Positions 1,625 through 56,426 of a DNA stretch of 64,000 nucleotides are shown here, piece by piece; within the stretch, counting starts at the first letter, position 1; every line of letters begins with the position of its first letter. The DNA comes from an uncultured Candidatus Saccharibacteria bacterium (lineage in GTDB: Bacteria; Patescibacteriota; Saccharimonadia; Saccharimonadales; JACDBH01), in NCBI GenBank assembly GCA_965231105.1, contig OZ246417.1, positions 229,013-293,012 on the forward strand. Direction: 5' to 3'. Both the position numbers and the translations under genes were made by a program. The notes below the pieces were generated by a model. That model saw nothing but the letters and a program-made list of their open reading frames with translations, did no database searches and was not told the DNA's origin.

Positions 1625-3013
1625 TTAACTCTCGAACGGCTGGGTGTGTTTTTTGTCTATGCTATGAAAGCGCTGTTTTTCACGGTCGAAATACAAGTCC
1701 ACATCGTCGGTGGGACCATTACGATGCTTCTTAATAAGAATCTTCGCAATATTCTTATTCTCCGTTTCGGGATTATAGTAATCTTCACGGTAAATAAAGG
1801 CTACAACGTCGGCGTCCTGTTCGATAGAGCCAGATTCGCGAAGGTCGGCAAGCTGAGGAATTTGGGGGCTGCGACTTTCGACAGAGCGACTCAACTGACT
1901 CAGTGCAATCAATGGTACATTCAGTTCGCGGGCAATACCCTTAAGTCCACGAGAAATTTCAGAAATTTCCTGTACGCGGTTTGCATCACCGCCAAAGCGT
2001 GAGCCGCCGCTCATGAGCTGAAGGTAGTCCACAACAATAAGTCCTAGAGGTCGTTTATGAGCTTCCCGGCGAGCTTTGGTGCGCATATCGCTGACGGTAA
2101 TGCCTGGCGTATCATCAATAAAAATTTGTGCCTCGCTCAGTGTTCCCATTGCCTGACCGATCTTTTCAAAGTCGCTATCAGTAAGGTTGCCGGTTCGAAG
2201 GTTCCACGCGTTCACACTGGCTTCTGCGGCCAGCAAGCGATCAACGAGCTGTTCCTTACTCATTTCAAGGCTGAAGACGAGAACGGGCATAGCAGCTTTC
2301 ACGGCCACATTATGCGCAAGATTAAGGGCAAACGCAGTCTTACCCATCGAAGGTCGAGCGGCGAGAATTATAAGATCTGATGGCTGCAGGCCTGCCAAGA
2401 TGTTATCGAGATCACGATACCCTGTTGGCACACCTCTCAGTTTACCTTTATCTTTATGGAGTTCATCGAGACGATCAAAACTCGCGCTTAATATGTTCTC
2501 AATACTCTCGATATCTTGCTTTATGTGTTCCTGAGAAACTTCAAATAAACTGGTTTCAGCATTCTCAATAAGTTCTTGAAGACTCTGTGACTCATCAAAA
2601 CCTAGATTAGCGATGGACTGGCTTGCCTTAATAAGACGACGGCGCATCGCCTTTTGGGCAATAATATCTGCATAGCGATCAGCATGGGCAGCGGTTGGTA
2701 CGAAGTTTGTGAGTTCAGTGAGATACGAAGCGCCTCCCACAATATCAAGCATGCCAGTATTTTTTAGCTGATCCGATAAGGTCAAGACATCGATAGGACT
2801 ATGCTTTTCATAAAGCTGCAGCATGCCTTCGTAAATACGAGCATGTCTTTCATCATAAAAATCATTGGGCCGTACAAGATCTGCTACTTTTACCACTGCA
2901 TCGCTATCGATAAGCAATGCTCCTAATAGGCTGGCCTCTGCCTCGGTATTCTGAGGAGGAATGTGAGCGATTTTATCCGGTTCCATATTAGGACTCGAGT
3001 ACCTCTCCCCCAC
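1625..3013 (-). CDS. dnaB: Replicative DNA helicase DnaB
   Basis: The 462-aa product has the DnaB N-terminal domain and a RecA-like Walker A (ARPSMGKTAF), followed by the conserved DnaB C-terminal motifs. Confidence 0.9.
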   Translation of the reverse strand: MGERYSSPNMEPDKIAHIPPQNTEAEASLLGALLIDSDAVVKVADLVRPNDFYDERHARIYEGMLQLYEKHSPIDVLTLSDQLKNTGMLDIVGGASYLTELTNFVPTAAHADRYADIIAQKAMRRRLIKASQSIANLGFDESQSLQELIENAETSLFEVSQEHIKQDIESIENILSASFDRLDELHKDKGKLRGVPTGYRDLDNILAGLQPSDLIILAARPSMGKTAFALNLAHNVAVKAAMPVLVFSLEMSKEQLVDRLLAAEASVNAWNLRTGNLTDSDFEKIGQAMGTLSEAQIFIDDTPGITVSDMRTKARREAHKRPLGLIVVDYLQLMSGGSRFGGDANRVQEISEISRGLKGIARELNVPLIALSQLSRSVESRSPQIPQLADLRESGSIEQDADVVAFIYREDYYNPETENKNIAKILIKKHRNGPTDDVDLYFDREKQRFHSIDKKHTQPFES

Positions 3014-4514
3014 CGAATATTGACGTTATGGCCTGCAGTTCACTGCCACTTTCAGATACTATATCACTAGCCACGGGTTCAACGGGATCTGCTTGTTTTT
3101 CAGCAACCGGCTTACCCTTCGCCTTTTTATCGTGTAGAGCCTGAATCTGGTAGGTATTGCCTGTAAGTGCCTTAATAATACTCTGTAATTTTCCACTTGT
3201 TTGGGCGTCGGCAATCTTTTTGGCATGAAAGCCAAAAGAAAAACGCAACGTTAAAGTAGACTCGTTGCACTCCGGATGTGCCATACGAAGGACGCCATAC
3301 AGGGTGTTATTGTGCTTCTTTGTTTCCTGCAAAACATGAGGCCACCATTCTTCGAAGCCTGCATCTGAATGCGTAGGAGCGGTATTCTCTTCTGCTTTAG
3401 ACTCAGTTTCAGTAGGTTCCGCCTCTTCAACTTTCGCTTCAGCTGATTCTGACTTTTCTTTCTTTTCTATCTTGTTGGTGGGTTTTTCTGGTTTTGGCGT
3501 TGAGACAGGCGTGACGGGTGGTACGGAGGGTGCTGGCTGATGCGACGCAGAAGGTGTAGCAATGGCAGCGCCGAAGAGTGCAAGCTCTAGAGCTGCTAAG
3601 GGATTATGGGCGGCAGGGACAGAAAGGAGGTCGCTGAGGAGACTTTTAAGTAGCTCAGAGGACTGTTTATCTGTACTCGTAATGAATTGCTCGCGCACGA
3701 TCGCGCTTAGTTGTTTTGCAACCTGACTTGGAGTAATGCCCTGCTCTACGAGGCTGGCCAGGTTCTTTACTATTTCTGCAGGGACACCGGATAATGTGGC
3801 AGATAGAAGTCCTTCCAGGGCTTCATGAGGCGCAACGCCAATGAGGCGTTCCACGTCCTTGCGGGATACTGACTTCTTATGGTTGCCGACTTGGTCTAAT
3901 AAACTAATACTGTCTCTAAAACTTCCCGCACCATGCTCGGCCAATAGCTCGAGGGCATCATCGTCAATCTCTATGCCTTCCTTTTGCGCGATAGCACGAA
4001 GATGCTCAACCGCGCGTGGATTATCAATGGATTTAAAGGTAAAGCGCTGAGTTCTGCTGATAATAGTTTCAGGAAGTTTGTGTACCTCAGTGGTAGCTAG
4101 AATAAAGATGACGTGTGCTGGTGGTTCTTCGAGGGTTTTCAGAAGCGCATTAAATGCTTCTTTCGTGAGCATGTGCACTTCGTCGATAATATACACCTTG
4201 TACTTAGCTGAGGTAGGAGCAATGTGTACCTTGTCTCGAAGGTCTCTAATTTCATCAATACGTCGATTACTTGCGGCATCAATTTCAATAATATCGAGGT
4301 GCACCGATTCGTCGGTGTACGGAAGACTATTCACTTCATGCGCTAAGATACGAGCGATTGAAGTCTTACCCACTCCTCGAGGTCCAGTAAATAAATACGC
4401 ATGGCTAATCTTTCCAGACTTAATAGCGCGTTCAAGAGTTTTCGTGACATGCTCTTGCCCGACGATTTCCGATAACGATTTAGACCGATATTTTCGGTAT
4501 AATGCCTGACCCAA
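2988..4514 (-). CDS. dnaX: DNA polymerase III subunit gamma/tau
   Basis: It is 508 aa with an AAA+ Walker A (GPRGVGKTS) and the DnaX clamp-loader motifs. It starts at TTG with a GGAGG Shine-Dalgarno 7 nt upstream. Confidence 0.9.
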   Translation of the reverse strand: MGQALYRKYRSKSLSEIVGQEHVTKTLERAIKSGKISHAYLFTGPRGVGKTSIARILAHEVNSLPYTDESVHLDIIEIDAASNRRIDEIRDLRDKVHIAPTSAKYKVYIIDEVHMLTKEAFNALLKTLEEPPAHVIFILATTEVHKLPETIISRTQRFTFKSIDNPRAVEHLRAIAQKEGIEIDDDALELLAEHGAGSFRDSISLLDQVGNHKKSVSRKDVERLIGVAPHEALEGLLSATLSGVPAEIVKNLASLVEQGITPSQVAKQLSAIVREQFITSTDKQSSELLKSLLSDLLSVPAAHNPLAALELALFGAAIATPSASHQPAPSVPPVTPVSTPKPEKPTNKIEKKEKSESAEAKVEEAEPTETESKAEENTAPTHSDAGFEEWWPHVLQETKKHNNTLYGVLRMAHPECNESTLTLRFSFGFHAKKIADAQTSGKLQSIIKALTGNTYQIQALHDKKAKGKPVAEKQADPVEPVASDIVSESGSELQAITSIFGGGEVLES

Positions 4515-6715: not shown

Positions 6716-6785
6716 GTCAGTGATTTCCTTTTCACTTCAATGTTTGTTGCTTATCCTATCGACCGTTGAATAAGCTGATTACGCT

Positions 6786-6821
6786 AAAACAAAAACGTCC
6801 TTGCGGATTAGGCAAAGACGT
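6786..6821 (-). terminator. Intrinsic terminator/attenuator in the rplJ leader, also 3' of the small-gene operon
   Basis: On the minus-strand RNA a 10-bp stem (ACGUCUUUGC / GCAAGGACGU, one G-U pair) with a 7-nt loop is followed by UUUUUGUUUU. A TATAAT -10 lies upstream at 6902..6907. Confidence 0.55.
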
Positions 6822-6901
6822 TAATAATGAACAAAAAGTATAAGATTGTTCACCTCGGTAGCATTCTTAAATCCTTTAGAGGGATCGCTACTGTCTTTGG
6901 T

Positions 6902-6907
6902 AATCAG
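6902..6907 (-). promoter_or_regulatory. Candidate -10 element (TATAAT) for the rplJL transcript
   Basis: A perfect TATAAT sits on the minus strand just after the stop of the upstream small gene. The -35 is weak. Confidence 0.25.
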
Positions 6908-6937
6908 AAAAATTATACGTTAACAGGGGTGCTTCTG

Positions 6938-46740: not shown

Positions 46741-47357
46741 TCATTAATAATCGCGAGAGACTTTTCACTGACAATAATGCTGTCGGCATTGAGGATATTG
46801 AATACATTCAGGTAACGTGCCTGTACGACCGTTAGATTTGGGATATTCTTGGTAGCACGTACGACAAGGCTATCCTTCTCGCTTACCACAAGCAGCACAT
46901 TTCCCTTAGCACCGATTTTATCCAGAAGCTTGACAGTAGCTGCCACTTTACCATCTTTGGATTCGAAAGTTTCAATAACGCTCACTTTCTTAGCAGCATT
47001 CGCAACACTCAAAGCTTGGCGAAGTGCTTGACGCTTCGTATTGCGAGGAAGCGTGTTTGAATAATTCTCGGTGCCAGTTGGACCGAAAGTAATACCACCA
47101 CCACGCCAAATTGGTACACGAATAGAACCGAAACGTGCACGGCCCGTACCCTTTTGGCGCCATGGCTTCTTACCACCACCACGAACTTCACCACGAGTCT
47201 TTACTTTGGCGTTATTAGTACGGCCATTTGCAAGATATGCAGTATAGGCTTGCTTCAGTAGGTCATGGCTCTTTACTTCTACGTCAAAGATTTCCTTTGA
47301 AAGCTTTGCAGCAGCGGTTGCCTTATTGCCGGTCTTTGTATAGGTAGGAACGCTCAT
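46722..47357 (-). CDS. rplD: 50S ribosomal protein L4
   Basis: A 211-aa L4 family match. Confidence 0.95.
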   Translation of the reverse strand: MSVPTYTKTGNKATAAAKLSKEIFDVEVKSHDLLKQAYTAYLANGRTNNAKVKTRGEVRGGGKKPWRQKGTGRARFGSIRVPIWRGGGITFGPTGTENYSNTLPRNTKRQALRQALSVANAAKKVSVIETFESKDGKVAATVKLLDKIGAKGNVLLVVSEKDSLVVRATKNIPNLTVVQARYLNVFNILNADSIIVSEKSLAIINEWLGAK

Positions 47358-47971
47358 TACTTAGCCTCCTTTACCACGACAACACTGTAGCGAGGGCCAG
47401 GAACGGCGCCGGTTACACCAATAACATTAAGCTCAGTGTCAACAAGCGCGATCTTAAGACCTTGAACGGTTACTTGATCGTGGCCAAGACGGCCAGCCAT
47501 CCGCTTACCTTTGAAAATACGCTGAGGATACATAGAGCCAATAGAACCAACGCGGCGGTAACTTCGACCACCGTGAGTCTTGCGACCGCGCTTAAAGTTG
47601 TGGCGCTTAATGGTACCGGCAAAACCTTTACCTTTGCTTGTGCCAGTTACGTTAACCTCATCGCCAACACTAAAAACGTCGGCCTTGAGTTCTGTGCCGA
47701 CGCTTATTTCTTCTGGGATTTCGTTATAGCGCATTTCGCGAATCATCTTTGGAGTAGCAATGTTAGCCTTCTTAAAGTGACCTTGCGCTGCCTTTGACGG
47801 GTGCTTTGCCACTTCTGAACCGAGCTGAATCGCAGTATAACCATCTGTTTCGTTTGTTTTGATCTGTGTAACCACATTTGGATTAACAGAAAGCAAAGTA
47901 ACAGCAACTACAGCACCGTCGTCTGAAACGAGGCTTGTCATACCGATTTTACGGGTGAGTAATGCTTTCAC
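47357..47971 (-). CDS. rplC: 50S ribosomal protein L3
   Basis: A 204-aa L3 family match. It is the first gene of the contiguous cluster; rpsJ is displaced 5.4 kb upstream. Confidence 0.95.
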   Translation of the reverse strand: MKALLTRKIGMTSLVSDDGAVVAVTLLSVNPNVVTQIKTNETDGYTAIQLGSEVAKHPSKAAQGHFKKANIATPKMIREMRYNEIPEEISVGTELKADVFSVGDEVNVTGTSKGKGFAGTIKRHNFKRGRKTHGGRSYRRVGSIGSMYPQRIFKGKRMAGRLGHDQVTVQGLKIALVDTELNVIGVTGAVPGPRYSVVVVKEAK

Positions 47972-48146: not shown

Positions 48147-49523
48147 CTACTGAAGTGCTGTCCAACCTCCGCTTGGATGCCGCGTGCCTAATAAGTTCAT
48201 TGAGCAGTCAAAGCCATGTCCGTATGGACCATTTCTAAAACAGTTATTAATAAGAGTCTGTGCTGTATTGGTGTCCCAACCGTTCCACCAGTCGGCGTGA
48301 AATGTCCAGCCGGGTTGCGCATTCGCAAACATATCAGCAGAGAATTTTAGTCCCGCTGCCCCACCTGCAGGCACACGCCACCTAAAGTGTTCTGTAAGCT
48401 GGGGGTATGTTCTCGGATGAGATGAAGGGCAACCTCTATCAGGCCAGCCGCTAGGATATGACATATGGGATCGGTGATCGGGCGAATCCAGCACAGGATT
48501 ACCTTGTCCGTCTACAGCGCCACACTGAGGGAAAACAATAGTCGCCTGAATATAGTAGCCAGCCGGACAGTTGGCAGGAATCCTGTCTGTATCCCAGTCT
48601 ACGCCGCGCGTTCCCCATGTAGATTGAGCATGCCCCCAGGAAATACAGTCAAAGTACACAGGACGAAACTGCGGATCGAATGGTGCAGAAACTCTAATAG
48701 GACCAGTGGGAGCGACGTTGGGGTTGCCACCCGCTATCATGCGAAGGCCAGCCGGGAACCATTCTATATTTTCAATGCGCGCACCATAGTACCCTAATTT
48801 GTAATAGGCCTGCATTGCAGTGCCGCCTCTGCCGCCAGCACCAGGATTTTGAGGATCAGTATCAGTCATAACTTGAGCAAGATCAAAGGTTCTCGTCTGG
48901 GCGTTATAGCTGTTCGTATTTATAAGAGCCGGTGCCCAATACGCAGTTCTGTTTAGAATGCCGCCATTACAGGTTGAATTCCCTTGCGTTCGTGCATCAG
49001 TCAGATGTGCATTTGCAGCGGTGTTGCCAAAGAATTGGTGCCAGTGAGCCGCACCTGCCTGTCCGGGGTATACAATCGGATCATCCTTTGAGGTATGGCT
49101 GAGCGAACACTCTGTTCTAAAAGCAGCATTGTCATTGCAACCGGATTGCTCATTATTAAAGCAAACAGGATTAGGGGCATAGCTTACGGAAGTGGTACGA
49201 GCGGTACTGAACCCGCTCACGGCTGCAGGTATTGTTGCCTGATTTAAGCAGCTATTATGTGCGAGCTGAGGACCCACTGCACATTCTTGGCTGCTTCCTC
49301 CCATCCCAAAGGTAACGTAGGAGCCATTTGATGCATCGGCTGCGCTATGCGTCATTGCGTTCCCGCTTAAACTGCCGGATTCTGCTTCGAGTTTAACGTG
49401 TGATCGAACGGACTGAGCTATTGCCTGTACTGCAAGAAACAGACTCATTATGAGTACAAGAATAATAATTCGATTGCTTAGAAATTGCTTAAAGTGCGCA
49501 GAAAAACCCTTCATTCCAAACAC
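48147..49523 (-). CDS. Secreted or membrane-anchored protein, DUF1996-like
   Basis: The 458 aa have an N-terminal hydrophobic signal/anchor and are Gly/Asn/Trp/Cys-rich. The motif DPIVYPGQAGAAHWHQFFGN matches what I recall of the DUF1996 signature (PG..S.H.H.FFG). Confidence 0.55.
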   Translation of the reverse strand: MFGMKGFSAHFKQFLSNRIIILVLIMSLFLAVQAIAQSVRSHVKLEAESGSLSGNAMTHSAADASNGSYVTFGMGGSSQECAVGPQLAHNSCLNQATIPAAVSGFSTARTTSVSYAPNPVCFNNEQSGCNDNAAFRTECSLSHTSKDDPIVYPGQAGAAHWHQFFGNTAANAHLTDARTQGNSTCNGGILNRTAYWAPALINTNSYNAQTRTFDLAQVMTDTDPQNPGAGGRGGTAMQAYYKLGYYGARIENIEWFPAGLRMIAGGNPNVAPTGPIRVSAPFDPQFRPVYFDCISWGHAQSTWGTRGVDWDTDRIPANCPAGYYIQATIVFPQCGAVDGQGNPVLDSPDHRSHMSYPSGWPDRGCPSSHPRTYPQLTEHFRWRVPAGGAAGLKFSADMFANAQPGWTFHADWWNGWDTNTAQTLINNCFRNGPYGHGFDCSMNLLGTRHPSGGWTALQ

Positions 49524-49545: not shown

Positions 49546-49806
49546 TTACAAAACTATTTCCAGTCCGAGCGGCAACCAGAACCCCACAAACATCGCTACG
49601 AGAAGAAGTGCGTATTCAATCTTTCGATCGATCTGAAAACGATCGTGAGATGCAAACACTATACCAAGGATAAGTCCAACCGGTATCGGTATCTGAGTGT
49701 TTCCTTTTGTGACACGAACCCACTGTGAGCCAATGATAAGATATAAAACTAGCTTCAGAACGAAAACACTATCCAGTTCTTGAGACTGAGATTTTGATTT
49801 TTTAGC
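49546..49806 (-). CDS. Hypothetical small membrane protein
   Basis: The ORF is trimmed to an internal Met (MAKKSKSQ...) to avoid overlap with the upstream ORF. It has two hydrophobic helices. Confidence 0.4.
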   Translation of the reverse strand, partial: AKKSKSQSQELDSVFVLKLVLYLIIGSQWVRVTKGNTQIPIPVGLILGIVFASHDRFQIDRKIEYALLLVAMFVGFWLPLGLEIVL

Positions 49807-49817
49807 CATTAGCGTTA

Positions 49818-50117
49818 TTAAAACATATAGGTAGACCGTCGGGCAATCACATCTTCGGCTGGACACACAGTACGGCTAGACAATTCAATCAGTCCACCCC
49901 TGCAATGGCCGCCAATACGGAGAGCATACTCTCGTTCTGCGTCACTCGCATTGAGACTTCCATTTTCTAAGTCTGTAAGGAGATCGAGAGCAACACTGTG
50001 TGCGATCGTACACTTACCACACTCCGGAGCAATGATGTCCATAACGAGATTGTACTTTTCGTATGCTTCCTCTTGTCCAGTCTCCAAAAGCGCCATTGAG
50101 CTATGGTAGCAAGACAT
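49818..50117 (-). CDS. Hypothetical Cys-containing protein
   Basis: A 99-aa ORF with CGKC and HCRGG motifs, at the head of the minus-strand operon that ends with the DUF1996-like gene. Confidence 0.4.
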   Translation of the reverse strand: MSCYHSSMALLETGQEEAYEKYNLVMDIIAPECGKCTIAHSVALDLLTDLENGSLNASDAEREYALRIGGHCRGGLIELSSRTVCPAEDVIARRSTYMF

Positions 50118-50180: not shown

Positions 50181-50411
50181 ATGGCTAAAGGCAAAGAGTC
50201 GTCGCCCCGATCAAAAGAGAATGCCCCCGAAAAAGCGAGTCGTTTCTTTCGGAATGTAAACGCCTTAGGGGCACTCGCAATTGGTGGTGCAGCATTCGTT
50301 ATTCCTGGCCCAAATGTCATTTTAGCCTCATGGGCAGGTATTAATGCGGCTCAAGCGGGTGGCTGGGAATTCCTGCGCCGTAAAGCTGAGAAACATCGCA
50401 AGAAAGAATGA
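50181..50411 (+). CDS. Hypothetical small protein
   Basis: A 76-aa ORF with a basic N-terminus and one hydrophobic segment. Confidence 0.35.
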   Translation: MAKGKESSPRSKENAPEKASRFFRNVNALGALAIGGAAFVIPGPNVILASWAGINAAQAGGWEFLRRKAEKHRKKE

Positions 50412-50449: not shown

Positions 50450-51031
50450 CTACTCACCGTTTGCATCTTTAATTTTTGATCTCAATAATCTTCTTACAAC
50501 TTCAGCCTTGGTTGTATTGGCATTAAAAGCTGCCCAGCGTAAATAATTGTGGATTTCTTTGTCTATTACGAAGTTAAACCGAAGATCTTGAAGATCTAGT
50601 TCATTCTGTTGTAAAAATGTTGTAATAATTGAAGACAGGTTGGAAGATGTGTATTTCTTATAAGTGAGTAAATCAGACACAATTCCTGAACCAAAGCTAT
50701 CTCGCAGGGAGTCATTTCTAGTAAGTACTAGGATTGGTTTTTTTAGTTGTAGAGCCAGGGCTGTTTGAAAACCAATTGAAAAACTTTTAGCAGAGGCTTC
50801 AAATATGCATACGTCAGCCTTCTTTATGCTTTCCATGATTAATTTATGAATCGCAGTCCAGTTTCTAGGATCCACATTTGTTTTCTTTATTTTCTTAGTA
50901 GCGGCATAAGCTTCTTCAATCCATTCAAGGGCCAGTCCACATTTGTTTTCTTTAACACAGGCCGTGATAGCCCGAAAGATTTCTATATCTTTTTCTATAT
51001 TACTTTCTGAGGCAGAGAACTGAACAATCAT
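50450..51031 (-). CDS. Nucleoside 2-deoxyribosyltransferase-like / SLOG-fold domain protein with a C-terminal ribbon-helix-helix (RHH) DNA-binding tail
   Basis: The N-terminal segment ...ADVCIFEASAKSFSIGFQTALALQLKKPILVL resembles the NDT/SLOG Rossmann-like core. The C-terminal segment FNFVIDKEIHNYLRWAAFNANTTKAEVVRRLLRSKI fits a beta-alpha-alpha RHH pattern. The coding sequence is AT-rich. Confidence 0.55.
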   Translation of the reverse strand: MIVQFSASESNIEKDIEIFRAITACVKENKCGLALEWIEEAYAATKKIKKTNVDPRNWTAIHKLIMESIKKADVCIFEASAKSFSIGFQTALALQLKKPILVLTRNDSLRDSFGSGIVSDLLTYKKYTSSNLSSIITTFLQQNELDLQDLRFNFVIDKEIHNYLRWAAFNANTTKAEVVRRLLRSKIKDANGE

Positions 51032-51085
51032 AAATAATTTTCCGCTTGCTTTATTTACTCATACTCTATACATATATGTGTAACC

Positions 51086-52099
51086 ATGCAACACATATGT
51101 ACATCGTGTCTGTACTGTTTTAAAAATAAAGCTTGTCGAGAGTGTTGCCTTCGAGAAGCTTATGATATCTTTGAGACAACCGGTGAGAGTTCAACAAAAA
51201 ATCAACTGAACCTATACGGCTTGCAAGAACTAGCAACCTATCCGTTTGAAGTGGAACAAATATCAGAATTTAACATACGCGTATCTCACCCTTATTTTAA
51301 CTGTAGTGAGCTTAATCTTATGCCACTCCTCCAAGTCCTAACAGCTGCTCATAAGAAAGAAATAGATATGGATAAGGATGTATCTAGGAAAATGCTAGAC
51401 CTAACTATAGAGTTGCTGTGCCGAGAAGGGGTTACGATTAAAGATCTTGGAACACGTCTTTCGGAACCCCCTGCTCACACAACCCTGGACATATATATTT
51501 ATGATGCTCGCTTTAGCCATCTCTTAACCTATGAGGCACTGTTCAGGCATTTTTCTCAAGGCGAACTTTTTATAGCGGACATTCATGACCTGACCCACCA
51601 CGGTCTCCAGATGATTGTATTTAGTGATTTTGTACCTAAGCTGGGCCAATTTGGATTGCAGGCTATTCAAAATAAGAGTGAATATCAGCTCGAATTAGCT
51701 ATATTTTTACTATACGCCTGCTTAGAATACTCAATTATCAAAGGCTCAAGGAACGCTTACAGCGGGGGGTGCTTAAATTGGCAGCATCCTCGAAAAAGTC
51801 CTGCAGAGAATGCTCAGTATCAGCCAATGTGCGCAAAATGCATTGTTTCCTGGAACAGCGTAAGAGGTCTTACGTCACTGTATCGAAGAGAAAAACAGTC
51901 AGCTGATAAGCTGGGTATCGAGGTTGAGTGGATGAAGAAATTAGGCTACGACACTTATCCTGAAAATCCTATTACTGGGGATATAACTTTTAGAAAAGAC
52001 ATATTCGTGAGACCGCCACTTTTTAGTGGTCCACATACAATTGAAGCGTTATTAGAAAATGCCACGATACTTATGAAAGAAGAAAGGAGCTACATTTAA
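51086..52099 (+). CDS. Hypothetical protein with an N-terminal Cys cluster (CxxC...CxxCC)
   Basis: The 337-aa ORF is divergent from the NDT-like gene and AT-rich. It contains a His-rich IHDLTHHG segment. Confidence 0.5.
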   Translation: MQHICTSCLYCFKNKACRECCLREAYDIFETTGESSTKNQLNLYGLQELATYPFEVEQISEFNIRVSHPYFNCSELNLMPLLQVLTAAHKKEIDMDKDVSRKMLDLTIELLCREGVTIKDLGTRLSEPPAHTTLDIYIYDARFSHLLTYEALFRHFSQGELFIADIHDLTHHGLQMIVFSDFVPKLGQFGLQAIQNKSEYQLELAIFLLYACLEYSIIKGSRNAYSGGCLNWQHPRKSPAENAQYQPMCAKCIVSWNSVRGLTSLYRREKQSADKLGIEVEWMKKLGYDTYPENPITGDITFRKDIFVRPPLFSGPHTIEALLENATILMKEERSYI

Positions 52100-52101
52100 C
52101 C

Positions 52102-52776
52102 ATGGCGGAAGGCAAGGAAGTTTATCGACAGCCGCATGCAATAACTTCCCAAGGGAAGCTTGCAATAATTGCGGGGCCCCATGGCTCGGGAAAAGATACG
52201 CTTGCTAACTTACTTCCCTTCACGCTCCCTAATTATAGGAAGGTAGTGAGATATACAACGCGCCCCCAAGGTTTAGCAGAAGTTCAGGGCATTGACTACC
52301 ATTTCGTAGGCACAAGCACTTTTACAGAAATGGCTCAGAGTGGCGAATTTATCGAATTTAACAGCTATATGGACGGAGCAACCGGAACTAGAAGACAAGA
52401 TATTCGCACAGCCAGCATGCAGGGCAGTGTTGGAGGCCTTACCATAAACTTTGAAGACGGGCTTAAGTTAAAAGAGAAACTAGAAGCAGAGGGTATTCAG
52501 TCTGTGTGTTTTTTTATCGGTCCTTGTACTGAAGAAGAGATGATAGTGAATCCCTCGGCCTACCTGAAGCTACTTAGCGAGAGGATGGAAAGGAGGGGCA
52601 GATCTTCCGATAATTTAAGTGAGAGACTCAAACGTGCACTCGAATATAGAAATCTTTATCTAAAAAATGCAGCGAGCATAGAATATATCCCAAACATTAA
52701 TCACCTGCAGCATGCAGCCGCTCAGGGTATAGCTAGTGTTTTGTCTGTTCCTGAATCAACCGATCATATTTCTTAA
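52102..52776 (+). CDS. Guanylate kinase-like NMP kinase family protein with an atypical Walker A (GPHGSGKDT)
   Basis: The 224 aa have a P-loop, RYTTRPQG and IDYHFV motifs paralleling Gmk SxTTR...GxDYxFV. It starts 3 nt after the previous stop. Confidence 0.65.
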   Translation: MAEGKEVYRQPHAITSQGKLAIIAGPHGSGKDTLANLLPFTLPNYRKVVRYTTRPQGLAEVQGIDYHFVGTSTFTEMAQSGEFIEFNSYMDGATGTRRQDIRTASMQGSVGGLTINFEDGLKLKEKLEAEGIQSVCFFIGPCTEEEMIVNPSAYLKLLSERMERRGRSSDNLSERLKRALEYRNLYLKNAASIEYIPNINHLQHAAAQGIASVLSVPESTDHIS

Positions 52777-53308
52777 CTTCTAACGACTCTCTACCTATTC
52801 CTAGTTCTTCTGCTTTGCTAAATATCAAAGCCTCCACCTCATCTGTAGGATCGTCGCTGGTCAGCAACTCGATCTCTAGGTACTCACCCAATCTCTCCAC
52901 TAAATCAAGGGCTATAGTTAAGCCATCTTCTTGAATTTCAATACGCTTTTTATTTATCTCTACAACTTTTTTAAAACCAATTGATTCGATAATATTTTTC
53001 GCAACCATAACAGAATCTACTCGTGTTTCATATTCGTTGCTATCACCACTTTGATTGATAGTCTTTTTTAGGGTAAGGATAGTTACTTGACCATCATTAC
53101 GAATTCTAGCTACTGGATCGCCGGGCTTAAAATTACGAAAGCTGTCCATCTTATACAGAAAAACTTGATCCTTCTGTATCTTCTCTTTTGAGCGTGGACT
53201 CCTAAATCGTATATATTTACGAATTTTATCGGCTTGCTCTTTAGAAAGTCGAAATTTACGTTCTATTTCTTTCATATATGGTTTATAGAATAGCGTACCC
53301 TTAGACAA
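52733..53308 (-). CDS. CYTH-domain protein (triphosphate tunnel metalloenzyme / CyaB-like)
   Basis: The 191 aa open with EIERKFRL, the CYTH signature, and show alternating charged beta-strands. It lies directly downstream of rpsJ on the same strand and is AT-rich. Confidence 0.65.
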   Translation of the reverse strand: MSKGTLFYKPYMKEIERKFRLSKEQADKIRKYIRFRSPRSKEKIQKDQVFLYKMDSFRNFKPGDPVARIRNDGQVTILTLKKTINQSGDSNEYETRVDSVMVAKNIIESIGFKKVVEINKKRIEIQEDGLTIALDLVERLGEYLEIELLTSDDPTDEVEALIFSKAEELGIGRESLEVKKYDRLIQEQTKH

Positions 53309-53366: not shown

Positions 53367-53705
53367 CTACATCTTAATCTCAGCGTCACAACCAGCAGGA
53401 AGACTCAGATTCATAAGTGAATCAATTGTCTTGGGGGTTGGATCAAAGACGTCAATAAGACGCTTATGAATGCGCATTTCGAACTGTTCACGACCCTTTT
53501 TATAGACATGCGGGCTCTTTACAACCGTAAAGGTGTTCTTACGAGTTGGTAGAGGAATTGGACCAGCAATAGTAGCCCCGGTACGAAGAGCGGTGTCTAC
53601 GATCTGCTTGGCAGACTGGTCAATTACTTTATGATCGTATGCCTTAAGGCGGATACGAATACGCTGCTTACCGGCAGGCGCGTCGGTTTTCTTGGCTTCA
53701 GCCAT
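53367..53705 (-). CDS. rpsJ: 30S ribosomal protein S10
   Basis: A 112-aa S10 family match. Confidence 0.95.
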
Positions 53706-53817: not shown

Positions 53818-54165
53818 CTAAAGATATGTCCCGTGATTCCGGCTTTCCTGCGGCTGAACAACCTTATCCAGAGGTATACGGTATTGACCAGTCTGCCACA
53901 ATCCTGTTCCCTGACCCCGTGCTCCATACACAATTTCACGGAGAGGACAGTCGATTTGCCCGCTCTGTTGGTTCTGAGACACCCCTGGACACTCGATTTT
54001 TGTACGCATAGCTTGTAACGCTTTTCTTCCTAGTGCAATCCCCCCTAATGCGACATTCCCGTTTGGTTCAGGATATTCATTGGCGAGTTCTTCGGCTACA
54101 TCGAAAACGGCATCCATCGGACACTTACTTATATCACATGTACTCATACTACTATTGCAACACAA
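53818..54165 (-). CDS. Hypothetical Cys-rich protein between tuf and rpsJ
   Basis: A 115-aa ORF with 7 Cys. The start is uncertain. Confidence 0.4.
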   Translation of the reverse strand: MCCNSSMSTCDISKCPMDAVFDVAEELANEYPEPNGNVALGGIALGRKALQAMRTKIECPGVSQNQQSGQIDCPLREIVYGARGQGTGLWQTGQYRIPLDKVVQPQESRNHGTYL

Positions 54166-55552: not shown

Positions 55553-56161
55553 TCATGCTGGTGAAGGAAAAACCCGTGTGCGTAAAAACATACAGCGCAA
55601 GAAGACATTAAACATAAATAGCCCTGCTGCGGTAACAATAATACTCAAGCCCGCATTCAGCAGTTTCATCAGATTAAAGTCAACAAAAGTGCCTAAAAAC
55701 AGCTCTGATGCGTACGGCAACACTTTACTGAAAAATAGATAGAACCACACAAAGACTAAGACCGTTGCAATAAATCGTATCAATAAACGCGCAAGAATCG
55801 TTTGCCACGTATTGGTTTTGGCATAACCTTGCGGCACCATAAAGCCACTCAATGGTGGGATGTCGTTCTTGTATGCATGAGCAATGGTTGCAGTTCCCCA
55901 ACATAAAAGGTACACCAGCATACCAATGACGCCCCAGATAAACAGTGTTACAAACTTTTTACCCGTTTCTCCGCTTAAGGGCTCGACAATTTTATCGACC
56001 GTTGTTTGAAAATAATCCGTCGAAATAACTTCGCCATTTCCATACAAATTAGTGATAGAAAGCGAGTTGATCATGAACAAAGCGGCAGCAGCAATCGCTA
56101 AAAGGCTAGCTACTTCGTACTTTGAGGGAATAAAAATAGTTAAAAGGCGCGATCGTGCCAT
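55553..56161 (-). CDS. Hypothetical integral membrane protein inserted between fusA and tuf
   Basis: A 202-aa ORF with about 5 hydrophobic helices. Confidence 0.5.
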   Translation of the reverse strand: MARSRLLTIFIPSKYEVASLLAIAAAALFMINSLSITNLYGNGEVISTDYFQTTVDKIVEPLSGETGKKFVTLFIWGVIGMLVYLLCWGTATIAHAYKNDIPPLSGFMVPQGYAKTNTWQTILARLLIRFIATVLVFVWFYLFFSKVLPYASELFLGTFVDFNLMKLLNAGLSIIVTAAGLFMFNVFLRCMFLRTRVFPSPA

Positions 56162-56222: not shown

Positions 56223-56426
56223 CTATACTTCGTAGTCGGTATAGGGATCTGGCTCTGCAACAGGCGCCGCGGTAAGCCTGGTTGGGCGCTCCATGACAAA
56301 AGATGCCACTTTTGCCGTACCAATGCTTACCAGCGCACCAACCGCATAGACTGCCGTCCGGCCAACATCCTTTGCTCGGTCAGCAAGACTTTTGCCTGGA
56401 TCAATATCGAATAGGTGTTCAGACAT
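56223..56426 (-). CDS. Hypothetical small protein
   Basis: A 67-aa ORF with one hydrophobic segment, 20 nt downstream of fusA. Confidence 0.35.
   Translation of the reverse strand: MSEHLFDIDPGKSLADRAKDVGRTAVYAVGALVSIGTAKVASFVMERPTRLTAAPVAEPDPYTDYEV

Follow-up and report, generated by a model that had tools for sequence, protein, structure and literature searches.

We describe here a cassette of four genes, A, B, C and D, that occupies positions 50450-53308 of a 64,000-nucleotide stretch of DNA (hereafter the window) from an uncultured Candidatus Saccharibacteria bacterium, between the ribosomal protein genes rpsJ and rplC. The cassette is a foreign, rare and horizontally mobile block and not a piece of lineage housekeeping. 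Its conserved functional core is the pairing of B, which appears to represent a previously unrecognised metalloenzyme family confined to bacteria of the candidate phyla radiation (CPR), with D, a CYTH protein for which triphosphatase activity is predicted; A and C are accessories. The interpretation that we favour, and to which we give slightly less than an even chance, is that of a self-contained, ligand-regulated operon for the processing of nucleotide triphosphates, mobile among Saccharibacteria and related CPR bacteria.

Most lineage-specific CPR genes have no assigned function, and CPR bacteria cannot make nucleotides. The cassette provides a concrete, testable handle on one lineage-specific CPR function. 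No database or paper that we searched describes the gene set, the B family or the architecture of A, which bears out the statement, made in a preliminary reading of the nucleotide sequence (the sequence-only reading), that no described system has this set of domains: PADLOC and literature searches returned none, and the literature held nothing relevant on CYTH proteins in Saccharibacteria or on DNPH1 joined to a ribbon-helix-helix. The components themselves belong to known superfamilies, and a repressor facing a divergent enzyme operon is a familiar logic.

Organization of the cassette

According to the list of open reading frames (ORFs), the minus strand of the window carries, in order, fusA, tuf, rpsJ, a gap of 5395 bp, rplC, rplD, rplW and rplB. 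Downstream from rpsJ, the gap holds D, C, B and A, then three small ORFs and the gene for a DUF1996 protein. The four cassette ORFs lie between rpsJ and rplC exactly where the sequence-only reading had placed them, and are listed here together with the genes that bound the gap.

53367..53705, minus strand: rpsJ (ribosomal protein S10), the upstream host gene; an ORF, with Pfam Ribosomal_S10 found on the identical contig L001
52733..53275, minus strand: D, CYTH protein / triphosphate-tunnel metalloenzyme, 180 aa; Pfam CYTH; the mechanical ORF reaches a TTG at 53308
52102..52776, plus strand: C, P-loop kinase of guanylate kinase fold, 224 aa; Pfam Guanylate_kin
51086..52099, plus strand: B, putative metalloenzyme, 337 aa; no family match, assigned from motifs and a profile alignment with aromatic amino-acid hydroxylases
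51032..51085, no strand: divergent intergenic region between A and B, 54 bp, holding a palindrome; candidate operator for A
50450..51031, minus strand: A, putative regulator, 193 aa; DNPH1/Rcl-like domain at residues 1-142 and probable ribbon-helix-helix tail at 150-190
47357..47971, minus strand: rplC; an ORF, 5395 bp from rpsJ

The cassette begins 58-91 bp past the rpsJ stop codon. The true start of D is probably the ATG at 53275, because the ExExK motif then falls at residues 3-7, as it does in all orthologues. D and A lie on the rpsJ strand, while B and C are on the opposite strand, where C is co-directional with B across a gap of 2 nt. D is consequently the sole cassette gene directly behind rpsJ on its strand and the only candidate for co-transcription with it; the earlier suggestion that the cassette may be co-transcribed with rpsJ survives for D and fails for B and C, which point the other way. 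A consensus scan found no terminator-like site between rpsJ and D, and promoter- and terminator-like sites were not above the level of shuffled sequence.

The convergent genes C and D overlap by 44 nt in the window (52733-52776) and by 53, 24 and 9 nt in three other instances of the cassette, with no overlap on contig L087, so that transcription of either gene must run antisense into the other.

Conservation of the block and its core

Searched for elsewhere, the same four-gene set was found in five distinct organisms, each time as a block in the order D> <C <B A>; they are represented by the window (identical to contigs L001 and L002), L003, L004/L091, L087 and L092. Compared with the proteins of the window, those of the other instances show 56-72% identity in A, 38-47% in B, 33-42% in C and 32-40% in D. 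The neighbours vary: response-regulator genes in L003, a histidine kinase and a dehydrogenase-like gene in L092, a 301-aa gene without an assigned family in L091, and rpsJ in L087.

A variant locus (L093, 3103-8031) lacks C and has B divergent from A, D (CYTH) and a SemiSWEET transporter. Its neighbours encode a NUDIX protein, a NadR-like NMN adenylyltransferase/kinase and the nicotinamide-riboside transporter PnuC, a context suggestive of a connection to the uptake and salvage of nucleosides. A more distant operon, present on 15 contigs (L094-L098; for example 2818-4985 of L094), encodes a B-like protein 22% identical to B, a 195-aa protein and a CYTH protein. Because L093 keeps A, B and D without C, and because a B homologue of 22% identity is still paired with a CYTH protein, the B-CYTH pair is the conserved functional core of the system, with A and C as its accessories. 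The 195-aa middle protein of L094 was considered as a relative of A and rejected (hhalign probability 0.1); it has no match in Pfam or the PDB.

B, a putative metalloenzyme family

B matched nothing in Pfam, NCBIfam, PHROG or PADLOC scans. Among 5.8 billion protein clusters it has three relatives by sequence and four by profile, and an exhaustive HMMER search of 1.84 billion representatives yielded a family of 31 proteins in all, restricted to CPR bacteria. A six-sequence B alignment retrieved nothing from JGI metagenome contigs or from IMG/VR. Within the cassette subfamily, an N-terminal H-x-C-x2-C-x2-C-x5-C-x2-C cluster is invariant, along with C73, C249 and C252, while the whole superfamily shares D-I-H-D-x-x-H-H-x-x-Q, E-Y/E-S, G-C-L-N-W-Q-x-P-R-K-S, R-R and W..L-G-Y.

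The core of B, at about residues 144-240, resembles the aromatic amino-acid hydroxylases (AAAHs). An AAAH alignment was built from 12 sequences, human phenylalanine hydroxylase (PAH, sequence validated) and 11 bacterial PhhA proteins, and hhalign matched B to it over 95 columns (P = 1.3e-4, score 39.9), compared with scores of 12.1 for the reversed template, at most 18.9 for thirty column shuffles and about 19 for unrelated profiles. In this alignment H167, H172 and E214 of B fall on the PAH iron ligands H285, H290 and E330, and the two B subfamilies, tested separately, match the same AAAH region. PAH Glu286, which contacts the pterin, is matched in position by the invariant Asp168 of B. Against the single PAH sequence the hhalign match was weak, with a probability of 0.6%.

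These alignments point, with moderate confidence, to an AAAH-like non-heme-iron metal centre in B. The sequence-only reading had called B a zinc-ribbon protein of unknown function; by profile alignment it would instead be mostly a divergent AAAH-fold domain. Like PAH, TH, TPH and PhhA, it has the spacing and register of a 2-His-1-carboxylate site, and the surrounding helices align. It differs from them in its low identity (12-19%) and in having no Pfam match, in adding an N-terminal Cys cluster and a CxxC pair, in its own invariant motifs (GCLNWQxPRKS, RR and W..LGY), in having a conserved CYTH partner in place of one for pterin recycling, and in being confined to the CPR. The many invariant basic residues of B suggest a phosphorylated substrate. 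B would then be an apparent remote relative of the phenylalanine, tyrosine and tryptophan hydroxylases that is tied to a triphosphatase, a pairing for which we found no precedent.

D, a predicted triphosphatase

D belongs to the CYTH family (Pfam E 4e-16), and its nearest solved relatives are the archaeal triphosphate-tunnel metalloenzymes (TTMs) 1yem, 2dc4, 7ns8 and 2een. The classic TTM substrate is inorganic triphosphate (PPPi). The motif set of D is complete (ExExK, RxR, K, ExE, KxR, D and ExE), and across seven orthologues E3, E5, K7, R57, R59, K70, E81, E83, K109, R111, D124, E134 and E136 are invariant.

D also scores above the cut-off of the TIGR00318 model for class IV adenylate cyclase (72.6 against 57.95 bits). 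Published signatures of the class IV cyclases are an HFxxxxExExK motif, replacement of the first Arg of xRxR by a small residue, and ExA in place of ExE (Vogt et al., PMC8233210). D fails all three: there is no HF, ExExK being at residue 3, both arginines are kept in V55-x-R57-x-R59, and E134-x-E136 is invariant. We therefore rejected the adenylate cyclase assignment, the same rules marking D as a triphosphatase. Given the lack of cyclase signatures and the full TTM catalytic set, D is predicted to be a triphosphatase of the triphosphate-tunnel type. It shares that catalytic set and the triphosphatase-type signatures with the archaeal-type TTMs (SaTTM/Saci_0718, PH1819 and Pfu-838710), of which SaTTM, a solved relative, is a triphosphatase; unlike them, D is bacterial (CPR), lies inside a cassette and is consistently linked to the B family.

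A, a putative nucleotide-sensing repressor

A profile of 18 A homologues matches DNPH1/Rcl, a 2'-deoxynucleoside 5'-phosphate N-hydrolase, in the PDB at E 5e-12 over residues 3-141. The AlphaFold2 model of A (pLDDT 85.7) agrees, as all of its top Foldseek matches are DNPH1 (probability 1.0, TM up to 0.84), and some A homologues carry PF05014, of the nucleoside 2-deoxyribosyltransferase (NDT) superfamily. The earlier domain calls thus held for C (Guanylate_kin), D (CYTH) and the NDT-like part of A; the alternative label of SLOG was imprecise, the domain being specifically DNPH1/Rcl-like.

A keeps the Glu equivalent to E82 of Rcl and the Ser equivalent to the phosphate-binding S87. In every cassette-linked A, in contrast, the catalytic nucleophile E93 aligns with Gln (GFQTA), D69 and Y13 are not conserved, and a probable ribbon-helix-helix tail is joined to the domain. 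This tail, the C-terminal ~45 residues, is called a probable DNA-binding element from the secondary structure of the model, in which residues 151-157 are extended and residues 158-171 and 175-190 are helical, and from the sequence pattern, with its G/N-T-T-K turn; it also has a weak match (E 0.079) to a PHROG 'transcriptional repressor'. Loss of the catalytic Glu together with a probable DNA-binding tail makes A probably a ligand sensor and not a hydrolase, and we read it as a transcription factor that would sense a nucleoside 5'-monophosphate.

A and B are divergent neighbours in every instance of the cassette, and a candidate operator for A lies between them. The perfect palindrome ACATATATGT is found at 51070-51079, 7 bp ahead of the start codon of B. 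The 64 kb contain it once, where 0.13 occurrences would be expected, and an identical or nearly identical motif stands just upstream of B in L003, L004, L087 and L092.

Beyond the cassette, distant A-like regulators, DNPH1-like with a probable ribbon-helix-helix and 36-48% identical, are common and occur at 78 metagenome loci (L110-L187) from soil and rhizosphere. None of the 78 has B or D nearby; most often their neighbours are DedA/VTT, RuvB or L25 genes, and sometimes ribonucleotide reductase. The residue at the catalytic position is E, Q or L across the A-like family. The A profile found no relatives in IMG/VR. At one locus (L088, 9567-10591) the A-like regulator is preceded by a 145-aa stand-alone NDT-like paralogue.

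C, a guanylate kinase-like protein

C scores 62 bits against Pfam Guanylate_kin and matches guanylate kinases in the PDB at E 8e-12; against the TIGR03263 equivalog model for guanylate kinase (Gmk) it reaches 77.6 bits, below the cut-off of 160.45. Residues were read against yeast Guk1 (sequence validated) in five cassette members. The phosphoryl-transfer set is invariant, comprising the P-loop GPxGxGK and the lid residues R161, R165 and R175. Of the GMP-binding residues, R38, E44 and Y50 are kept, and E69 is kept in three of the five members; S34 is replaced by Arg in all five, R41 by Gly, Ala or Asp and Y78 by Ser or Thr, and D100 is not conserved. C accordingly resembles Gmk in its fold, P-loop, TTR motif, E44, Y50 and lid arginines, and departs from it in an 11-residue insertion before the lid, in its score below the equivalog cut-off and in its altered acceptor residues. 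From these residues C looks like an active kinase, the acceptor of which is probably not plain GMP. The sequence-only reading had described C as guanylate kinase-like, and by its model score and the change in half of the GMP-binding residues C is not a bona fide Gmk. No other gmk is present in the 64-kb window, the part of the roughly 0.9-Mb genome that was covered.

Foreign origin and mobility

The AT-rich break noted by the sequence-only reading was reproduced by a windowed check of GC content: at 0.395, the cassette (50450-53308) is the second lowest of 1223 overlapping 2.9-kb segments of the 64 kb (mean 0.456, standard deviation 0.016). Gene by gene, the values are 0.357 for A, 0.365 for D, 0.404 for B and a near-normal 0.446 for C, with flanking genes at 0.42-0.50.

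A genome scan with RplC provided 80 species representatives (L005-L084), mostly labelled as Saccharibacteria or Saccharimonadales metagenome-assembled genomes, the closest at 75% protein identity. A, B, C and D were found in the syntenic region of none of the 80, so the four genes are not universal and syntenic in this lineage. Acquisition rather than housekeeping, as the sequence-only reading had proposed, agrees with this absence, with the small number of B relatives and with the intact block in other contexts.

A trace of movement is seen on L087, from another Saccharibacterium, where the cassette lies between two exact direct copies, each of 127 nt, of the rpsJ 3' end (1-127 and 2990-3116); no other instance has such an exact repeat. 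The duplicated stretch corresponds to the last ~43 codons of rpsJ, and the truncated downstream copy is followed by the native gap genes and rplC, which is the footprint expected of an element that recombines into the 3' end of a gene. Low GC, absence from 80 relatives and the L087 repeat all speak for a foreign origin of the cassette. The closest relatives available for the window or for L087 have about 81% nucleotide identity in rpsJ.

In these respects the cassette resembles gene cassettes and integrative elements that restore the 3' end of a host gene, namely in the rpsJ repeat and truncated downstream copy of L087 and in the position of D, which in four instances out of five follows a co-directional host gene at a distance of 30-90 bp. 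It differs in that no integrase, transposase or attC-like element was found, in that the window itself has no repeat and in that the targets vary between organisms. No recombinase domain and no attC-like element occurs in or beside any instance, and the absence of integrase, tRNA target and flanking repeats that the sequence-only reading reported for the window was confirmed. Insertion at a tRNA was rejected as a mechanism, since no tRNA lies near any cassette instance. A 30-nt repeat at the cassette borders in L092, 73% identical, could be due to chance and is not relied on. Natural competence and the integration of DNA by homologous recombination, both known in Saccharibacteria (PMC10633639), offer an integrase-free route of acquisition; natural transformation followed by recombination is a plausible alternative to element-style insertion.

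The rpsJ-rplC junction as a variable slot

The sequence-only reading had treated the split between rpsJ and rplC as exceptional, these genes being among the most conserved neighbours in bacteria. In Saccharibacteria the split is the rule. Both genes are present in 60 of the 80 related loci. There the median gap measures 1215 bp; 5 gaps are below 300 bp, 9 are at least 3 kb, and the longest reaches 9.2 kb. Most related gaps contain a homologue of the 106-aa membrane protein found in the window. Among 73 gap ORFs scanned, eight encode NUDIX proteins and four CTP synthase (pyrG), and in the three loci with positions checked the NUDIX gene is directly behind rpsJ. Other cargo includes peptidases, lysyl-phosphatidylglycerol synthase, erythromycin esterase, VanY and one reverse transcriptase, so that the cargo of related species is varied and mostly metabolic.

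The junction is thus a variable cargo slot in Saccharibacteria, and with the split usual in the lineage, the argument from a most conserved adjacency does not apply to this phylum. This finding is useful to those who rely on synteny of the ribosomal operons for binning or phylogeny. As Saccharibacteria are now genetically tractable, the slot could perhaps also be used as a natural 'landing pad' for their engineering.

Proposed function and alternatives

The sequences establish the gene set, its conservation as a block, its foreign composition, the fold and motif assignments and the linkage of B to CYTH proteins. For the ligand, substrates, order of reactions and operator of the cassette we infer the following scheme. 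The cassette would have landed in the variable slot of the lineage, just behind rpsJ, with the enzymes B and D at its core. A would bind the palindrome, which overlaps the B start region, and repress B and C until a (deoxy)nucleoside monophosphate-type ligand, probably guanine-like, freed it from the DNA. C would phosphorylate that monophosphate towards the di- and triphosphate. B would act on a triphosphate-bearing compound, either by oxidation at its iron centre or by triphosphate elimination, and D would hydrolyse the triphosphate, on the compound or as free PPPi, the removal of which would pull the B reaction forward. D would usually be placed for read-through from the upstream host gene. 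More speculatively, the ring of the ligand may be guanine- or pterin-like (2-amino-4-oxo); the hints are the pockets of A (Rcl-type) and B (AAAH-like), the Gmk fold of C, which keeps E69 in three of five members, and the placing of B Asp168 at PAH Glu286. The metabolic leaning of this scheme draws on the NUDIX and CTP synthase genes that the same slot holds in relatives; Saccharibacteria are without de novo nucleotide synthesis and depend on salvage (PMC10633639).

Several points weigh against this interpretation. The link of B to the AAAHs was followed up from a non-significant PDB profile lead (E = 1.5), and the hhalign P-value does not come from a blind test. The Pfam model Biopterin_H (PF00351) detects none of the 28 B-family members scanned at E <= 1, and no pterin-recycling gene accompanies B in the cassette. 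The AlphaFold2 model of B is poor (pLDDT 57.5), and a Foldseek search with it against the PDB gave no match (best E 2.4), a null result that is to be expected from a model with a pLDDT of about 57. As for A, the ribbon-helix-helix part of the earlier domain call stands less firmly than the rest: the tail has no Pfam match, and its hhalign comparison with CopG, in the expected register, is not significant (E 0.19). C is missing from L093 and from the L094-type operons, so the core can do without a kinase step. The repeat in L087 is 127 nt long, a k-mer size that assemblers commonly use, and it is cut by the end of the contig, so that a circular form is an alternative; the structure could be a chromosomal direct repeat or a 2.99-kb circle. 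The assignments of substrate, ligand and activity are predictions, and a defence system or a selfish element would be just as compatible with low GC and a distribution that is rare and patchy.

Two linked larger claims have, in our judgement, a substantial chance of being right, though one well below even. The first is a new CPR-specific enzyme system, in which a highly divergent AAAH-fold iron enzyme (B) and a dedicated triphosphatase (D) would act on a triphosphate-bearing nucleotide or pterin-like compound, under the control of a new class of transcription factor, a catalytically dead DNPH1 domain with a ribbon-helix-helix tail; A would then be a new design of nucleotide-sensing repressor, an N-glycosidase fold turned sensor. 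The second is integrase-free spread, in which the cassette would enter behind strongly expressed genes, rpsJ for example, and would bring along or duplicate the 3' end of its target.

Of the other explanations, a nucleotide-based anti-phage or conflict system survives best, and we still consider it unlikely. A would then sense an infection-derived, possibly modified, deoxynucleoside monophosphate, and B, C and D would deplete or alter the nucleotide pool. Horizontal transfer of a rare, patchy, AT-rich block into varied contexts would suit such a system, DNPH1/NDT-like, kinase-fold and triphosphatase domains are also known from nucleotide-centred conflict systems, and a Fic-like gene lies near the L093 variant. 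The antiviral or phage leaning of the sequence-only reading nevertheless found no credible PADLOC match: PADLOC-DB v2 has none for A, B or D, and C matches mad8 alone (E 0.011, 13 bits). Of six contexts examined none is a defence island, the neighbours being two-component genes, rpsJ, NadR/PnuC/NUDIX, a tRNA synthetase and YkuD; neither A nor B has relatives in IMG/VR; the cassette holds no obvious toxic effector such as a nuclease, pore or TIR domain; and a repressor with a divergent operon is an architecture typical of metabolic control.

Next in rank, and likewise improbable, comes a pterin pathway in which B would be a pterin-dependent hydroxylase, D would strip the GTP-derived neopterin triphosphate, C would feed GTP and A would sense GMP or dGMP. 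The resemblance of B to the AAAH fold, with its aligned iron triad and Asp168, speaks for this explanation, as do the removal of triphosphate from dihydroneopterin triphosphate, a known step of pterin pathways, the Gmk fold of C and the Rcl-type domain of A, Rcl preferring dGMP. The cassette, however, encodes no GTP cyclohydrolase, pyruvoyltetrahydropterin synthase (PTPS), pterin-4a-carbinolamine dehydratase or dihydropteridine reductase; B escapes detection by Biopterin_H; C has changes at its guanine-specific residues; and the full-text literature searched contained no link between a TTM and neopterin triphosphate.

That the genes are housekeeping salvage functions, a real Gmk with accessory phosphatases sitting in the S10 region by chance, is very improbable. 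The dependence of Saccharibacteria on nucleotide salvage (PMC10633639), the NUDIX and pyrG genes often found in the slot, the intact P-loop and lid of C and the lack of another gmk within the 64-kb window are what it can draw on. It is opposed by the score of C far below the Gmk cut-off with S34, R41, Y78 and D100 lost, by the foreign GC and the repeat flank in L087, and by the distribution, on which universal housekeeping was rejected: none of 80 related species has the cassette at this place, and B has about five close relatives among 5.8 billion clusters. Least probable of all, to the point of being scarcely credible, is a signalling system in which D, as its TIGR00318 score would allow, makes a cyclic nucleotide sensed by A, since D has none of the cyclase signatures, SaTTM, its closest solved relative assayed, makes no cyclic nucleotide, and the DNPH1-type pocket of A is of a family that binds 5'-monophosphates. 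Whatever probability remains we leave to selfish or neutral cargo or to possibilities not listed here.

Neighbouring features

Between the cassette and rplC, the gap of the window holds four further ORFs.

50181..50411, plus strand: 76-aa ORF, native gap resident outside the cassette; homologues in L007, L008 and L040
49818..50117, minus strand: 99-aa ORF, native gap resident outside the cassette; from the ORF list
49546..49866, minus strand: 106-aa membrane protein, native gap resident outside the cassette; most of the 80 related loci have a homologue in their rpsJ-rplC gap
48147..49523, minus strand: DUF1996 secreted protein, 458 aa, outside the cassette and just upstream of rplC; Pfam DUF1996 E 3.6e-35

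The DUF1996 gene, whose GC content of 0.498 exceeds that of its neighbours, has no homologue at any of the 80 related loci and seems to have entered this rpsJ-rplC gap independently, as a second acquisition.

A perfect 16-nt inverted repeat, with arms at 53609-53624 and 53883-53898 that are 258 nt apart, encloses the 5' untranslated region of rpsJ together with its start codon and the initial ~80 nt of coding sequence. A 318-nt RNA over the rpsJ start folds at z = -2.9, a stability that none of 100 shuffles equalled. The inverted repeat may be a regulatory stem akin to an S10 leader.

Other intervals of the region carry additional genes. Between tuf and rpsJ is a Cys-rich 115-aa ORF (53818-54165, minus strand) with no family match and no homologue in the related loci, and the fusA/tuf interval holds a 202-aa multi-pass membrane protein (55553-56161, minus strand) and a 67-aa ORF (56223-56426, minus strand). 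These ORFs are further lineage-specific inserts of the str/S10 region. Elsewhere in the window, Rfam identifies an L10_leader at 6780-6918 on the minus strand (67.6 bits, E 1.4e-8), an ordinary ribosomal-protein leader upstream of the rplJ region.

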